Below, in pieces: positions 3,696-53,495 of a DNA stretch of 64,000 nt (the stretch's first letter is position 1; every line of letters begins with the position of its first letter). A model generated the notes under the pieces. The model had not been told where the DNA came from, did no database searches, and was given only the letters and a program-made list of their open reading frames with translations. The stretch is from Escherichia coli (GTDB lineage: Bacteria; Pseudomonadota; Gammaproteobacteria; Enterobacterales; Enterobacteriaceae): the NCBI RefSeq assembly GCF_013315695.1, contig NZ_CP054353.1, one strand, 5' to 3'. Both the position numbers and the translations under genes were made by a program.

Positions 3696-4091
<396 letters not shown>

Positions 4092-4284
4092 TCAAAATGT
4101 GTGATGGAAATCTCATAATTTTGTCACTTTTTGTCAACGAATCTTTTTTGTGAGAAATCGCAGGAAGAGGTGTTTTTTACTTGAGGAATATCTCAAAGCG
4201 AGCCATATTTGATGAGATCGATAGTGACTAAATCGCTTCAGTTTCACAACTAACAGAATAAAAAAACGGCAGCTCAAGGGCTGT

Positions 4285-46677: not shown

Positions 46678-46694
46678 ACACTTATGATGCTGAT

Positions 46695-46729
46695 AAACCG
46701 CAATGTGTTTCACAGATTGCGGTTTTTTT
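46695..46729 (+). terminator. rho-independent terminator of the tRNA-fMet operon
   Basis: aaaccgcaat...attgcggttt hairpin followed by T-run. Confidence 0.8.
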
Positions 46730-46755
46730 GTATTTAAAATCTTTGTTCGCTGAAC

Positions 46756-47712
46756 TCACAACACGTTTTTTATCTCCCTTCCTGCGAAGTAATCAATTAT
46801 CGACTGGGCAACGTGTATCCCGGTTTGCTGGTATGACTCAACGGTGGCTGCCGCGATATGCGGCGTTGTAATGATATTTTTGGCATGTAGCAGTGGGCTA
46901 AATTGCGCCAACGGTTCAGAGCTAAACACATCCAGCGCCGCAAACACATTTCGTTCTTCAATCACCTGAAGTAAAGCGCCCTCATCCAGCAACTTTCCCC
47001 TTGCGGCATTGATGATCAGAGCACCATTGCGCATCATCGACAAATATTTATGACTAATGAAGTTCTCCAGCTCCGGAGAAAATGGCAAAAGAACGATGAT
47101 GACATGAGACTGCATAAAGATATCTTCAATTGATACGAACTGAACTCCATCTTTGCCTGCGGCCTGGAAATCGGGTTGTTTGTCAAAAGCTAAAAGCTCA
47201 ACATCAAAACCAGATAACCTTTTCGCCAGTGTTTTGCCAATATTGCCGTAGCCAAGCAGGCCAATACGTTTACCTTGTAACTCGCAGCCATGCGACTCGC
47301 CCCAATAACCATTTTGCATCGCATGATAGCTACCGGGGATATTTCTCATGCTCGCGAAGATAAGTCCAATGATAAATTCCGCAACCGCATTTGAATTAAT
47401 CCCAACCGCATTATTGACAACAATACCGGATTGCTGTGCCGCACGAAGATCAATATTGTCTATCCCCGTCCCGAATCTCGATATTATTTTCACACCAGAC
47501 AGCAATGATAGCGTGTCCGCCTGATAACAATCTTTTCCGGCGATGACCGCGCAAATAGATTCTCGTAATGCAGTGGATTCTGATTTAAGCAGATGCTCCA
47601 CATTATTCTTAATAATAAGATTAAAATTATTCTCTCTTAGCAACTTGCTGGCGGAAACACAGCGTGCTGAAAAGCTGGGGACGGTGACCAGAACATTTTT
47701 CATAGCTGACAC
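46756..47712 (-). CDS. D-isomer-specific 2-hydroxyacid dehydrogenase family protein (accessory island)
   Basis: 318-aa ORF with NAD-binding GxGxxG (GLLGYGNIG) and catalytic-domain layout of SerA/GhrA-type dehydrogenases; AT-rich codon usage. Confidence 0.75.
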   Translation of the reverse strand: MSAMKNVLVTVPSFSARCVSASKLLRENNFNLIIKNNVEHLLKSESTALRESICAVIAGKDCYQADTLSLLSGVKIISRFGTGIDNIDLRAAQQSGIVVNNAVGINSNAVAEFIIGLIFASMRNIPGSYHAMQNGYWGESHGCELQGKRIGLLGYGNIGKTLAKRLSGFDVELLAFDKQPDFQAAGKDGVQFVSIEDIFMQSHVIIVLLPFSPELENFISHKYLSMMRNGALIINAARGKLLDEGALLQVIEERNVFAALDVFSSEPLAQFSPLLHAKNIITTPHIAAATVESYQQTGIHVAQSIIDYFAGREIKNVL

Positions 47713-47773
47713 TCACTTCAAAGAACGCCACCCCAAAAGATGGCGTGACCGGTTACTGTTTTATATTCTAAAA

Positions 47774-48370
47774 TTATGAGTTTGCTTTAATACCGAGCGC
47801 ACCTCCTGGATGATATAAGCCGAAATCAGCACGAGTAAACTTTTTCAATTCGGAGAGCGCAAGCGCCACCGCATCACCAACAACCAGAACGACTGTTGAT
47901 GAGCATGACGGCGCTAAACCTAAATTATCCGCCTCACTTTTTACGGGAATTTCAACGGATAAATCACAACTTATCGCAAGCGATGAGTGATGACTGCGTG
48001 TAAAAGAGATCAAATAATTACCCATTTTTTTCAGACTAGGCAGTGTCGCCAGGATTTCCGCCGTCTCACCACTGTTTGAAATAAGAATAACAACATCGTC
48101 TTTCGCCACCATTCCAAGGTCGCCGTGTACCGCTTCCGTACCGTGAACAAAAAACGAGGGAGTTCCGGTACTGGCAAAAGTTGCTGCGAGTTTTCTGGCA
48201 ATAATACCGGACTTACCAACACCAATAAAAACAACTTTTCCCTGACAAGATTGTAATACTTTAATTAAATTTGCGACCTCCGAAAGGGGGGAATCAATAA
48301 CTTCTTCAACTGCTTTATATTCGTTACGCATAAAATGTTTAATGAGATGGATAAGATCCGTGCTGTTCAT
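47774..48370 (-). CDS. SIS-domain sugar-phosphate isomerase (KpsF/GutQ-like SIS domain without CBS domains)
   Basis: 198-aa ORF with SIS motifs GVGKSG...SNSGET; closest in memory to arabinose-5-P isomerase or hexulose-6-P isomerase SIS domains. Confidence 0.7.
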   Translation of the reverse strand: MNSTDLIHLIKHFMRNEYKAVEEVIDSPLSEVANLIKVLQSCQGKVVFIGVGKSGIIARKLAATFASTGTPSFFVHGTEAVHGDLGMVAKDDVVILISNSGETAEILATLPSLKKMGNYLISFTRSHHSSLAISCDLSVEIPVKSEADNLGLAPSCSSTVVLVVGDAVALALSELKKFTRADFGLYHPGGALGIKANS

Positions 48371-48372
48371 TT

Positions 48373-49554
48373 TTATTTTCCTTGATTAATATTTTTAATT
48401 ACACTCGCAAGACGCGTAAGCCCCATATATAATTTTTCTCGACCGCAGGCCAGGTTCAGACGAAGGTAGCCCTCCCCCTCCGTTCCATAGACATGCCCCG
48501 CCATAATGCCCACTTTGCCTTCATGAATTAATCGACTGTAAAATTCATCAAAAGGATAACCAATAGCAGAACAATCTATCCAGGAAAAATAGCAACCATC
48601 AGCTGGCCTTACGATCAATTCTGGAATATTTTCATTCAGATACTGCTGGGTGAATTGAATGTTAGAGGCAATATGTACCTTTAATGACTTTAACCATCCC
48701 TCACATTCGTTATAGGCAATAATAGTTGCAATTATATTCAGTACTGATGGGGAGTTTACAAAATCGCGATACCTCGATATCGTTCTGAACTTATGATTAA
48801 AATTATCGTCAGTTGAAATCATATACGATCCTGTTAGTGCAGGAACATTAAATGTTTTCGATATCGAGTTAAATACTACTACTTTTTCTTTTTTTATTTT
48901 AAGCGCGGATGTAAAGCTACGATTAAAAACAAAATCACTATGGATTTCATCTGAACATAACCAGACATTATGCCTTGTACAGCTTGCAGCGATTTTATGC
49001 AGTTCTTCTTCCGACCAGACTGTTCCTGTCGGGTTATGAGGATTACATAATAACACCATCTTTGCGCCTTTAATCTTAAGTTCAAAATCTTGCCAGTTGA
49101 TAGCGTAGCCCCCCTCATTTTTTATAATCAAAGAGGCTGTCAGAATATTTCGCTCGCTATGTTTAATTACATCAAAAAATGCATTATAGACAGGTGTAAA
49201 AACGAGAATATTATCACCATGTGATGTCAATAACTCTATTGCTTTTGCAATAGAGTACATCACACTGGGGCTATAGGTGATCCATTCTGGTTTGATTTCA
49301 GTTTTATATTGTTGATGATACCAGTTTACTATCGCATTCAGATAGTCATCATGCTGCCAACGGCTGTACCCTAAAATCGGGTGTTCCAGACGTTTTCTTA
49401 ATGCCCTGATGATAGCGTCCGGTATCGGAAGATCCATATCTGAAATAGAGAATGGTAATACATCTTTTACACCAAATCTGTCCTCGCAAAAGTCCCATTG
49501 GGTACAATATGTTCCTTTGCGGGAAACAGGAGTATTAAAAACATCCATCAGCAT
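48373..49554 (-). CDS. PLP-dependent C-S lyase / aminotransferase, MalY/PatB family
   Basis: 393-aa ORF that aligns by eye along its length with E. coli MalY (TQWD, LPF.ISDMD, LLC.P.NPTG, SDEIH, SK.FN.PAL). Confidence 0.75.
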   Translation of the reverse strand: MLMDVFNTPVSRKGTYCTQWDFCEDRFGVKDVLPFSISDMDLPIPDAIIRALRKRLEHPILGYSRWQHDDYLNAIVNWYHQQYKTEIKPEWITYSPSVMYSIAKAIELLTSHGDNILVFTPVYNAFFDVIKHSERNILTASLIIKNEGGYAINWQDFELKIKGAKMVLLCNPHNPTGTVWSEEELHKIAASCTRHNVWLCSDEIHSDFVFNRSFTSALKIKKEKVVVFNSISKTFNVPALTGSYMISTDDNFNHKFRTISRYRDFVNSPSVLNIIATIIAYNECEGWLKSLKVHIASNIQFTQQYLNENIPELIVRPADGCYFSWIDCSAIGYPFDEFYSRLIHEGKVGIMAGHVYGTEGEGYLRLNLACGREKLYMGLTRLASVIKNINQGK

Positions 49555-51128
49555 ATCCCCATGTAGTTATCCATATCCCGACGCAAGGCGATGACTTTAG
49601 TACCGATAATGACTTGTAGGGTATTTTGATCAAGTTTAACAACCGCAATCCCGCCAGCTCTTTTTATTGCAACTTCGTCAATCAATCCCATATCTGCGAT
49701 TGTTAAACGTAAACGAGTTACGCAATTATCCAGTGACTTAATATTCTCTTTACCACCAAGTGCCTTAACCATCTGCTCCGCCGCTTGCAGCTCTGATTTA
49801 TCAGGAGTTGGGATATCCGCTATAGCCGTATCTTCGTGAACGTTCAGCGTGACAGGACTGGACTCTTCACGGCCTACGGTCATCAGGTTAAATTTAAGAA
49901 TGGTCCAACGGAACACAAAGTAATAAATGAAGAAATAGGCCACTTCGACACACACCGCGATCGGCCAACCTGTTCTTGTGCCACGCAATACGCCAAAGCT
50001 AATAAATTGAATCAGATCGCCAGTAAATCCCATCTTCACGCCCATATATGGCAGAACCATGTTAGCGAATCCATTCATAAAGGCATGGAAGACAAACAGC
50101 AGTGGACTGACAAATAAGAACAGAAACTCAATCGGTTCGCTGACGCCGCCAATAATCACCGTAAGCACCCCGGAAATAAGCAATGCTTTGATAGCCTTTC
50201 TGTTTTGAGCATGAGCAGTGCGATACATCGCCAGCGCGGCACCAGCCAGACCATACTGAATCATCAGTTTGCCCTGCTCCATTTTCCCCGCCAAATCCAG
50301 CGGAATGACCGCATTCTCTTTAACGTATGCCATAAACATGTTCAGGGTGCCGTAATATTCTTCGCCGCCAATCACAGCCGAACCGCCGATTGGCGTAAAG
50401 CGGAAAACTGACGTCACCAGATGGTTTAAGCCAAAAGGAATCGTCACGCGTTCGGCAACTGCATAGAAGAAATAACCAACAGGACCGGAAGTTGATATCC
50501 AGTGGCCAATGAGCATGAAGAGATTGAAAAACGGCGGCCAGATAAAAGGAATGATCAGACCAAATCCACTCATCACAATCAGTGTAATGATAGGCACCAG
50601 ACGTGGGCCGCTATAAAAACCTAATGATTCAGGAATGCGTAAATTAACGATCTTTTTATACATGCTGGCGACTAATAACCCAGCAACAATTCCCCCTAAC
50701 ACGCTGGTATTGTAGGACTGGATCCCCAGAATGATGGTTTGCCCATGTGTCGACATTTGGTCAGCAGCGACCAATAAGTCGTGCTGTTTAAGATAAAAGT
50801 TCGTTCCCAGATGCATCGCCATAAAACCAATTAAGCCAGAAAAAGCGCCATAGGCTTTATCCTCTTTCTCTTTTAATAATCCTAAGGGAATTGCTATCGC
50901 AAACAATACAGGTAAATTAACAAAGGCAAACAAACCAAGGCTAACAATGAAATCAAGTATGGTTTTAATTATTGGAATAGTCAGAAATGGAATTAACTTT
51001 GCCATATCATCACTGGCTAAACCACTTCCCAGCCCTAGCATCATGCCACATACACTTAGCAGAGCAATGGGATACATAAATGCCTTCCCCAGGCTCTGAA
51101 AAAAACTCCAGGCTTTCTTTTGTTTCAT
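49548..51128 (-). CDS. PTS glucose-family EIICB component, MalX-like
   Basis: 526-aa polytopic ORF with C-terminal EIIB phosphocysteine motif (NCVTRLRL); strong resemblance to MalX/PtsG EIICB. Confidence 0.8.
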   Translation of the reverse strand: MKQKKAWSFFQSLGKAFMYPIALLSVCGMMLGLGSGLASDDMAKLIPFLTIPIIKTILDFIVSLGLFAFVNLPVLFAIAIPLGLLKEKEDKAYGAFSGLIGFMAMHLGTNFYLKQHDLLVAADQMSTHGQTIILGIQSYNTSVLGGIVAGLLVASMYKKIVNLRIPESLGFYSGPRLVPIITLIVMSGFGLIIPFIWPPFFNLFMLIGHWISTSGPVGYFFYAVAERVTIPFGLNHLVTSVFRFTPIGGSAVIGGEEYYGTLNMFMAYVKENAVIPLDLAGKMEQGKLMIQYGLAGAALAMYRTAHAQNRKAIKALLISGVLTVIIGGVSEPIEFLFLFVSPLLFVFHAFMNGFANMVLPYMGVKMGFTGDLIQFISFGVLRGTRTGWPIAVCVEVAYFFIYYFVFRWTILKFNLMTVGREESSPVTLNVHEDTAIADIPTPDKSELQAAEQMVKALGGKENIKSLDNCVTRLRLTIADMGLIDEVAIKRAGGIAVVKLDQNTLQVIIGTKVIALRRDMDNYMGIC

Positions 51129-51159
51129 GTGGGTTATCTCATATAAATGTTATATATAA

Positions 51160-51984
51160 TTAGTCCATTAATACTTTGGTACGAATAGAGAGATATAGTT
51201 TTTCTTCTAAAATTAATTCATATTTAAAAGTGGCATACAGATACCGTTCAATTTCATGAATTGCGCGCTGTAAAAGGATGTCCTTTTCAAGAAACTGTTC
51301 ATAGATATCACCAATATCTTTCTGTTTTATTTTTTCATTGCATAACACGCGACTTGAAAAATATTTAAGGTGTATCATGAACCTGGAATAATTAAATGAA
51401 CTTCTGTCCACCTTTCTGTTATAAACAACTTCAATAAGCCCCGTGATTATTTGCGACAACTCAATAATCCGTACTGATTCATAATCAACTGAATTTTCAT
51501 AATTATTTAAAATATGCAATGCTATAAAACCAATCTCATCATCAGGAAGTTGAACGCTGAATTGCTCATTAATGATAGTTAATGCATCGCGACTTATCGC
51601 ATACTCTGCTTTGTACAACGCTTTGATTTCATCAAGGAAAACATTATTAATTTGTATGCCTGAAGCGACTCTGGATATTGCATTCGAAATGTGATCAGCA
51701 AGAATCAATAGTAGCGATGGATTGAGATTTTTTTCGAGATTGTTCTCCGCATATTGCACTATTTTTTCGGCAACAAAAACATACTCAATATCCACATGTT
51801 CAATCAATTTGTAGAGTTTATTTTTTTGTTCATTTCTGACATAAAAAATCCGGTTAGCCGGATGCTCAGGGACCGACATTCCATATTTTTTGTTGTAACC
51901 GACGCCAGGCCCAGAAATGATAACCTCCTGTCCATTCATCGATGCCTGTACACAATTATTGTTCATGACTTTTTCGATGATCAT
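51160..51984 (-). CDS. BglG/LicT-family transcription antiterminator (CAT RNA-binding domain + PRDs)
   Basis: N-terminus MIIEKVMNNNCVQASMNGQEVIISGPGVGY matches the co-antiterminator domain signature; track ORF starts 19 codons upstream (52041) inside the leader terminator, and GGAG precedes the ATG at 51984. Confidence 0.7.
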   Translation of the reverse strand: MIIEKVMNNNCVQASMNGQEVIISGPGVGYNKKYGMSVPEHPANRIFYVRNEQKNKLYKLIEHVDIEYVFVAEKIVQYAENNLEKNLNPSLLLILADHISNAISRVASGIQINNVFLDEIKALYKAEYAISRDALTIINEQFSVQLPDDEIGFIALHILNNYENSVDYESVRIIELSQIITGLIEVVYNRKVDRSSFNYSRFMIHLKYFSSRVLCNEKIKQKDIGDIYEQFLEKDILLQRAIHEIERYLYATFKYELILEEKLYLSIRTKVLMD

Positions 51985-51995
51985 TCCATGGCTCC

Positions 51996-52068
51996 AAAAA
52001 AAAAGGCAAGGCACGTCAGAAGTAATAACTACTTCAAACATTGCCTTGCCTGATTTAACAGTTACAAG
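51996..52068 (-). promoter_or_regulatory. RAT (ribonucleic antiterminator) overlapping a rho-independent terminator in the antiterminator leader
   Basis: Minus strand CTTGTAACTGTTAAATCAGGCAAG resembles the BglG/LicT RAT consensus (GGATTGTTACTG...CAGGCAAAACC); its 3' half forms the 5' arm of hairpin GGCAAGG...CCTTGCC followed by T9. Confidence 0.6.
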
Positions 52069-52241
52069 ATGATTAACTAATGCGTATACATTACACGGAA
52101 TTGTGCTTAATTAAAGAGATGGTCGGCTTATTTTTCAAGCCGACATTCAAATATCCGACATCAGTCACAAAACCAGCGTCTAATATTCAGGTAAATGTTA
52201 TCTATTCAACGAAATATAAATTCATTGAATAAATAAAAACA

Positions 52242-53495
52242 TTATCCCCTTCTCGCCAGCGTCGCCCCATCGGCAAAATACGCTTTAATTCCCGCAAGAA
52301 TAGACTCCGCAACTTCCTGCTGGAAAGTCGCCGTTTTCAGTTTACGCTCTTCCTCAACGTTACTGATAAACGCCGTTTCGACCAGAATGGAGGGAATATC
52401 TGGTGCCTTTAGTACGGCAAACCCGGCCTGTTCAACTTGATTTTTATGCAGCTTGTTGATTTTACCGAGCTTATTCAGCACCGCTTTACCAAACTTCAGG
52501 CTGTCAGCAATGGTCAGCGACTGCACCATATCGAACATGGTGTGGTCGACATAGCGGTCACCGCTTTTGCTTACGCCACCAATCAAGTCCGAGGCGTTCT
52601 GGGTTTGTGCCAGATATTTTGCCGCAGTACTGGTTGCGCCTTTGGTTGAGAGCGCAAACACCGAGGAACCGCTCGGCTGGCGACTGGTAAAGGCGTCGGC
52701 ATGGATAGAGACAAACAAGTCAGCACGCTGTTTCTGGGCTTTTGCTACGCGCACTTGCAACGGAATGAAGATGTCTTCATTGCGCGTCATGTACACCTTC
52801 ATATTGCCCTCTTTCTCGATCAGAGAGCGCAGACGGCGAGCTATTTGCAATACCACGTCTTTTTCGCGTGTTTTGTATTTCCCCACCGCACCGGAGTCTT
52901 CGCCACCGTGGCCAGGGTCAAGCATAATGACAATCGGACGATCCCGCCCAGCTTTACCCGGTTGTGGACCACTTTGTGCTGGCGGCACCTGCTTTTCGAG
53001 GTCGCCTTTGTTGTAATCCTCCAGCAGCGCCAGCAGCGGGTCCTGCATGTCCTGAGCATTGGCAGGATAGAGATCCATCACCAGACGCTCTTTAAACCCG
53101 GCGACCGGAGCAAGGGCAAACAGCTGCGGTTTTACGTTTTGCTTTAACTCAAAAACCATCCGCACGGTTTGCGGGTCAAACTGCCCGACGCGCGCCGACT
53201 TGATGAACGGGTCATCAGCACGAATTTGTGCCGCCATCCCCTTGAGCACTGAGTTCAGGTTTACATCTTCGATATCCACCACCACGCGTTCAGGGTTACT
53301 CAACGCGAACTGCTTATATTTCAGCTGACGATTAGATTCTACCGTCACACGGGTGTAGCTGGACGCAGGCCAGACGCGCACCGCCACGACCTGGCTGACC
53401 GCAGCCAGACTGACCTGACTTACGCTCAATAGCCACATGGCACCCGCGCCTTGCAGTAAACGACGACGGCTGATTGCAGTGTTGGATCCTGACAT
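52242..53495 (-). CDS. amiC: N-acetylmuramoyl-L-alanine amidase AmiC (Tat-exported)
   Basis: Amidase_3 domain; N-terminal twin-arginine signal ([11 protein letters not shown]); track ORF is 5 codons longer, probable start MSGSNTAI. Confidence 0.9.

Follow-up and report, generated by a model that had tools for sequence, protein, structure and literature searches.

The segment 52068-51996 (minus strand) of the 64-kb Escherichia coli window, by which we mean the whole stretch of DNA analysed, is very probably a BglG/SacY-type antitermination leader that stands before a five-gene operon. Read 5' to 3' on the minus strand, its elements follow each other in the order 5'-CAT-CTTGTAACTGTTAAATCAGGCAAG-GCAATGTTTGAAGTAGTTATTACTTCTGACGTGCCTTGCC-TTTTTTTTT-GGAG-CCATGGA-ATGATCATCGAAAAAGTCATGAACAATAAT (Table 1): a RAT-like hairpin, an intrinsic terminator, a Shine-Dalgarno sequence and the start codon of the antiterminator gene. 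The 3' half of the RAT, AGGCAAG, is at the same time the 5' arm of the terminator (AGGCAAGGCA, 52051-52045), and because these bases belong to both hairpins the two folds are mutually exclusive. The RAT hairpin is possibly one pair longer than listed, with U.G or U-A at 52069/52044. That the leader is read as an antitermination switch owes something also to the location of the RAT, directly upstream of a gene encoding CAT_RBD and PRD domains. An earlier note on this DNA had described a RAT-like sequence overlapping the 5' arm of a strong terminator, followed by GGAG and an ATG opening MIIEKVMNNN, and had called this the classic BglG/SacY arrangement. The minus-strand read bears out the first two descriptions, the first with the help of folding; the third is supported by a covariance model of RATs, by the exclusive folds and by the CAT_RBD and PRD gene.

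Table 1. Coordinates of the leader, the operon genes and associated features in the window.
Feature	Position	Strand	Details
Conserved upstream block	52084..52096	minus	GTGTAATGTATAC (GTGTA-N-GGTATA); 16-28 nt upstream of RAT
RAT-like hairpin	52068-52045	minus	CTTGTAACTGTTAAATCAGGCAAG; layout CUUG-UAA-CUG-UUAAAU-CAG-G-CAAG; read from sequence
Intrinsic terminator, stem-loop + T9	51996..52051	minus	stem-loop 52051-52005
Terminator stem	52051-52004	minus	AGGCAAGGCA...TGCCTTGCC(T); G-C-closed part 52050-52005
Upstream in-frame ATG	52041	minus	within 5' arm of terminator; start of mechanical longest ORF
Spurious 19-codon N-terminal extension, non-coding	51985..52041	minus	inside terminator hairpin
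T9 run	52004-51996	minus	read from sequence
Shine-Dalgarno GGAG	51995-51992	minus	7 nt 5' of ATG 51984
Antiterminator ATG	51984	minus	opens MIIEKVMNNN
Antiterminator, 274 aa, CAT RNA-binding domain + PRD1 + PRD2	51160..51984	minus	Pfam CAT_RBD, PRD
Antiterminator-PTS spacer, 31 nt	51129..51159	minus	sequence read
PTS EIICB permease, MalX/PtsG class, without EIIA domain	49548..51128	minus	Pfam PTS_EIIC, PTS_EIIB
PatB/MalY-family PLP-dependent C-S lyase	48373..49548	minus	TIGR04350 366.5 bits, above cut-off; RefSeq coordinates
SIS-domain-only KpsF/GutQ-like sugar-phosphate isomerase, 198 aa	47774..48370	minus	Pfam SIS
D-2-hydroxyacid / phosphoglycerate dehydrogenase-like enzyme	46756..47703	minus	Pfam 2-Hacid_dh, 2-Hacid_dh_C; RefSeq coordinates

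The two folds differ greatly in strength. The terminator alone folds at -27.9 kcal/mol, and the 111-nt leader reaches -33 kcal/mol (z = -3.8 against 200 shuffles, none of which folds as well). On its own the RAT folds weakly (-4.7 to -6.3 kcal/mol), as would be expected if a protein is required to stabilise it. Enforcing the RAT pairs takes the energy from -27.9 to -15.8 kcal/mol and costs the terminator stem its lower 10 bp, leaving a residual hairpin about 17 nt from the U-tract; this separation means that it is no longer an intrinsic terminator. The same treatment of the two E. coli bgl leaders, which served as controls, led to the same behaviour (t1, -25.2 to -17.4 kcal/mol; t2, -33.5 to -25.7 kcal/mol). 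Folding, which the earlier note had proposed as a check for exclusive structures, found them: the constrained fold leaves no hairpin that abuts the U-tract, just as in bgl t1 and t2. The leader hairpin is absent from the list produced by a simple terminator scan, apparently because its upper part exceeds the loop limit of 3-8.

To what extent is the RAT-like hairpin a RAT? The pattern TTGTNACYG-N4-9-CRGGCAA has a single match in the 64-kb window, at the RAT site, and none in 100 dinucleotide shuffles. A covariance model (R1) was built from seven RATs, with the candidate left out, aligned on the published two-loop structure: bgl t1 and t2 of E. coli K-12, three RATs from a Clostridium tertium locus whose protein is named LicT, and two from a licT locus of Thermoanaerobacterium. 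With filters off, the top match of R1 on either strand of the window is 52067-52046 (minus), at 18.7 bits and an E-value of about 0.003, a rough figure given the shortened calibration. The next matches score at most 14.1 bits; they fall within genes or on the wrong strand, and only the ends of the model align. The covariance search that had been suggested on the strength of the letters therefore ranks this site first in the window, and does so with a model trained on other RATs only. The site may already have been catalogued: as cited in PMC12591593, Gordon et al. 2015 searched K-12 and UPEC genomes for RATs. Rfam, scanned over 50900-52400 at E-values up to 10, gave no match to the leader, and the matches that it returned in this interval were chance-level snoRNA or miRNA models. 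On the basis of this result, together with the protein-dependent family context, a riboswitch reading was rejected.

The match to R1 concerns the top of the element. The alignment spans model positions 4-26 only, leaving out positions 1-3 and 27-30, and within it all six core pairs are standard: the upper stem (CUG/CAG), the upper internal loop (U-N-A opposite G) and the middle stem (UUG/CAA) are all present. This RAT lacks the lower internal loop, in which A/G/U3 faces N26-A27 and which is closed by G1-G2/C28-C29; where the canonical form has its GGA...AACC base and that loop, the stem runs on without interruption through C3-G26 and U2.G27 (or U2-A27). Specificity is known to depend on variation in the lower loop; in B. 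subtilis this loop is a main recognition determinant, and the main one for telling GlcT targets from those of LicT, SacT and SacY, with A3/A26 marking the LicT targets (PMC1635312). In the B. subtilis GlcT/ptsG RAT and the LicT/licS and bglP RATs (PMC1635312; PDB 1L1C, 3RIO, 1H99) the top is conserved as it is here, but the RAT of the window lacks both kinds of lower loop, that of LicT targets with A3/A26 and that of the GlcT target. GlcT resembles the antiterminator of the window in being paired with a glucose-family EIICB; glcT, however, is not behind its own RAT, whereas the regulator gene here is.

The closest comparison within the same species is the E. coli bgl leader. There too the core UUGUNACYG...CRGGCAA overlaps a terminator just before the antiterminator gene, a CAT-PRD-PRD regulator is followed by a PTS permease, the locus is AT-rich and horizontally acquired, and the folds compete comparably. 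The two systems differ in the lower loop and base of the RAT (GGA/AAACC in bgl, AUC/GGC here), in the regulators (BglG and the antiterminator here are 25% identical), in the permease (a beta-glucoside EIIBCA in bgl, a glucose/maltose-class EIICB without EIIA here), and in the presence of a second RAT/terminator, t2, between bglG and bglF, where the locus described here has only its short spacer. The likeness raises the question of whether the RAT, although functional, might be read mainly by another antiterminator such as BglG, with the local protein acting elsewhere or being redundant. The upper loop and stem (UUGUNACUG...CAGGCAA) are common to the bgl RATs, and cross-talk is known from B. 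subtilis, where SacT binds every RAT except that of ptsG (PMC1635312). Against this, positions C3 and G26 are paired here, in place of the A3/A26 internal loop of LicT-type and bgl RATs, and the RAT and the antiterminator gene occur together in every orthologous locus, including those of genera and contexts without an obvious bgl link. We regard reading by BglG or a similar protein as quite unlikely, and take the RAT to be the probable target of the antiterminator encoded behind it.

A stronger version of that assignment is that the RAT belongs to a separate recognition class, with a canonical top and a continuous lower stem, read only by this orphan antiterminator. The C3-G26 pairing suggests such a private RNA-protein pair, as does the near absence of antiterminator homologues at intermediate identity: a protein search returned none between about 35% and 77%, with one exception (P0020, 57% identical over only 73% of the query), and the close homologues are confined to Escherichia, Citrobacter and Atlantibacter. 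We hold this possibility tentatively, and on balance lean against it. If it is true, a UPEC-associated sugar operon would be insulated from BglG cross-talk, and the RAT would provide a Gram-negative example of specificity re-coded in the lower half of the element. Save for this possibly distinct lower-stem recognition variant, the leader adds nothing conceptually new to the BglG/SacY paradigm.

Conservation of the leader was assessed in orthologous loci from Escherichia whittamii, E. coli E69, Citrobacter sp. FP75 and MGH106, Atlantibacter hermannii and three metagenome contigs (L012, L013 and L015). The antiterminators of these loci are 77-93% identical, and both the gene order and the 31-nt gap between the antiterminator and PTS genes are the same throughout. 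The upstream neighbour is amiC in Escherichia and, judging by ORF layout, in Atlantibacter; it differs from amiC in Citrobacter MGH106 and in L013. Across the eight orthologous leaders only a single column of the 24-nt RAT core varies, namely position 8 of the upper loop (A in most, C in Atlantibacter); the terminator loop and the upstream spacer are conserved far less well. In E. whittamii, the two Citrobacter, Atlantibacter and two of the metagenome contigs the leader has been kept although the proteins are just 77-80% identical and the upstream neighbours differ.

The terminator is conserved in a different manner. Every one of the orthologous terminators folds at -25.7 to -28.1 kcal/mol, and in a fixed-column count 91% of cells are paired, compared with 33-54% in slid registers; the count is conservative because the 3' arm of Atlantibacter is shifted by one column. 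Three pairs show compensatory changes: at columns 37/70, G-C has become A-U in three sequences; at columns 41/67, U.G has given way to G-C; and at columns 46/62, G-C is again replaced by A-U. The equivalent test for the RAT across the orthologous leaders revealed no covariation, the element being nearly invariant. Accordingly, the support for the proposed RAT structure is by analogy and not by compensatory changes, and the near-invariance itself would fit a sequence-specific protein-binding site.

These comparisons, and the region further upstream, bear on the possibility that the hairpin and U9 are simply a constitutive terminator, an insulator between amiC and the operon, with the RAT likeness coincidental and regulation exerted at the promoter or not at all. 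A sigma-70 consensus scan found no minus-strand promoter between amiC and the hairpin, which is compatible with an insulator, as is the non-canonical base of the RAT. Read-through from amiC is conceivable, moreover, since the amiC-proximal hairpin (52144-52122) has a weak T tract. Yet the RAT motif, absent from all of the shuffles, stands directly before a CAT-PRD gene; conservation of the leader extends to loci with a gene other than amiC upstream; the 24-nt core is much better conserved than the terminator loop and upstream spacer; and a constitutive terminator of -28 kcal/mol before the first start codon would silence the operon. We consider a constitutive insulator very unlikely and retain the antitermination switch.

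Some further features of the upstream region deserve mention. Within the conserved block listed in Table 1, GTGTA and GTATA are invariant in six orthologous leaders of different genomic contexts, and TAATGT at 52093-52088 (pattern TAnnnT) is the best candidate for a -10 element, albeit a weak and purely putative one. A CRP-like half-consensus, TGTGA-N6-TCGGA, is located at 52154-52169 (minus), some 80 nt before the presumed start of transcription. As a CRP site it was set aside: it matches half of the consensus only and, though found in Escherichia leaders, is absent from Citrobacter and Atlantibacter. The amiC-proximal hairpin, GTCGGCTTG-AAAAA-TAAGCCGAC, has a 9-bp stem and lies 98 nt past the amiC stop; E. 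whittamii and E. coli E69 have it in altered form. Possibly it terminates amiC transcripts inefficiently and so allows read-through into the leader.

The position of the start codon determines whether the hairpin is leader or coding sequence. Were the gene to start at 52041, its product would have 293 aa and the hairpin region would be coding. This ATG is in frame, yields the longest ORF and has AAGG just upstream; however, in 4 of 9 orthologous leaders ACG or AGG stands in its place, the U9 run would form part of the 19 additional codons, and the Pfam CAT_RBD domain, aligned from profile position 1, sets in only with residue 20 of the 293-aa product. Each of the eight closest full-length homologues has 274 aa and opens MIIEKVMNNN, while distant relatives, BglG included, open at the aligned position with M-x-I-x-K-(I/V)-x-N-N-N; alignments to PDB entries start at residue 2 (LicT, BglG-family) or residue 3 (GlcT, 3rio). 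The GGAG at the shorter start is invariant in the orthologous leaders, and the RefSeq CDS (WP_001571832.1) starts at 51984. A start at 52041 thus has a practically negligible probability. The suspicion, voiced in the earlier note, that 52041 was wrong and 51984 right is confirmed by RefSeq, Pfam, homologues and orthologous leaders alike: the ATG at 52041 was chosen only because the ORF caller takes the longest frame, and translation begins at 51984. Since 52041 is not conserved, a leader-peptide or upstream-start reading was also rejected. The corrected start is not new, being already the database annotation, but it settles the N-terminus of the regulator for anyone wishing to express the antiterminator. 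A two-codon mini-ORF, ATG-GAA-TGA (51981-51989, minus), overlaps the real start codon (ATGGAATGA) and reads ATG-AAA-TGA in all orthologues; it is probably not initiated, because its ATG is only 2 nt from GGAG.

The antiterminator matches solved LicT, GlcT and BglG-family structures, with PDB 1tlv and 1h99 covering PRD1 and PRD2. Its scores against the NCBIfam models fall short of every cut-off: 225.7 bits for LicT (NF046042; full length; cut-off 300; residues 1-268 covered), 178 bits for GlcT (NF047357; full length; cut-off 320) and 104.4 bits for BglG (NF007295; cut-off 322). Judged by these profiles it is a member of the family but not an equivalog of LicT, GlcT or BglG. An alignment of 12 sequences has histidine throughout at three PRD phosphorylation positions (H98, H157 and H205). 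The fourth PRD histidine position is occupied by R268 in the antiterminator and all its orthologues, and by N in E. coli BglG; we take residue 268 to correspond to H269 in the numbering of LicT. The arginine may reflect a different HPr-dependent control.

Of the genes that follow, the first encodes the EIICB, which is presumed to be the sugar sensor of the operon; its score against TIGR02004 (malX) is 537 bits, below the cut-off of 632. The dehydrogenase-like gene is the last. Between them, the isomerase gives partial matches to the NCBIfam KdsD and kpsF models. Its SIS domain corresponds to only the N-terminal half of the full-length KdsD/GutQ models, the C-terminal part being missing. Its orthologue in CFT073, c3406, has been described as an arabinose-5-phosphate isomerase.

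How might the switch operate? Transcription would start within roughly 170 bp of island DNA upstream and, by default, would stop at the strong hairpin and U9. With the sugar of the operon in transport, EIICB would no longer phosphorylate PRD1 of the antiterminator; a CAT-domain dimer would then bind and stabilise the weak RAT hairpin, sequestering AGGCAAG, and RNA polymerase would read on into the antiterminator gene and the remaining four genes of the operon. Since the regulator is encoded behind its own terminator, induction would take the form of a positive feedback loop dependent on basal read-through. The scheme builds on the observed sequence elements, exclusive folds, conservation, protein domains and start codon; in it we infer RNA binding by the antiterminator, its PTS-dependent phosphorylation, the inducer and the promoter. 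An operon gated by a RAT/terminator switch and positive autoregulation would offer a practical handle for finding the inducing sugar.

It is plausible that all five genes answer to one leader and that the regulator governs its own expression. The argument for control from a single leader rests on the shortness of the spacer between the antiterminator and PTS genes and on the lack of a second RAT. The gap, earlier given as 32 bp, is 31 nt long; the accompanying statement that no second RAT precedes the PTS gene holds, for neither the sequence read nor R1 revealed a second RAT or a terminator in the spacer, and R1 has no further significant minus-strand match in the operon.

Antiterminator-first operons with one leader are known elsewhere. 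In Enterococcus faecalis nagY-nagE (PMC9981650) the RAT and a rho-independent terminator overlap within the only 5' leader, which precedes an antiterminator gene that is autoregulated, and the terminator is conserved via compensatory mutations. That system differs in being Gram-positive, in its 172-nt 5'UTR, in a RAT that is poorly conserved relative to the consensus, and in a permease specific for N-acetylglucosamine. One of the loci compared here, L008, likewise has a single leader, the antiterminator first and a 45-nt gap to the PTS gene. In L008 (about 2855-2925) and in a second locus, L010 (about 2885-2975 and 3850-3880), the RATs are of a different class, GG-UAGURAUUG...CAAGCUAAACC; the antiterminators of the two loci are 33-35% identical to the one described here, and the RAT overlaps a terminator upstream of the antiterminator gene. 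The C. tertium locus (L009; protein named LicT) has three canonical RATs, at 2803-2821, 3870-3890 and 4078-4098; one of them precedes licT, and the other two form a tandem within the 318-nt spacer between licT and the PTS gene. Two of the three carry A at position 8 (UGUAAC), like the RAT of the window.

Comparison with K-12 places the leader on an insertion. Homology extends to the last base of the tRNA-Met gene metV (46678) and is found again from the stop codon of amiC (52241) onward, and from these two break points it follows that the operon, the leader and any promoter are all carried on the inserted DNA. The island (46679-52240; 5,562 bp, or 5.56 kb) replaces 71 bp of K-12 spacer, including the K-12 metV and amiC terminators, and has a GC-content of 34-47%, compared with 51-57% in the flanks. 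Of 5426 complete E. coli genomes, 1686 (about a third) carry it over at least 80% of its length; from K-12 it is absent.

From the metV position of the island and the PTS maltose/glucose annotation we infer that the locus corresponds to the c3405-c3410 region of PAI-CFT073-metV, a region reported in all four UPEC strains examined (PMC2831201). In PAI-CFT073-metV the region is part of a larger island, whereas here it forms a minimal 5.56-kb insertion between metV and amiC. The leader RNA of c3405-c3410 is not described in PMC2831201, the sole relevant literature match. The leader is, in sum, an ordinary switch of the BglG/SacY type in a previously catalogued, UPEC-associated operon. At the other end of the island, just past metV, a hairpin (CCGCAAT-N11-ATTGCGG) followed by T7 is located at 46698-46729 (plus); it is probably the replacement terminator of the metZWV tRNA operon and, in the other direction, where the T tract is weaker, may close the PTS operon.
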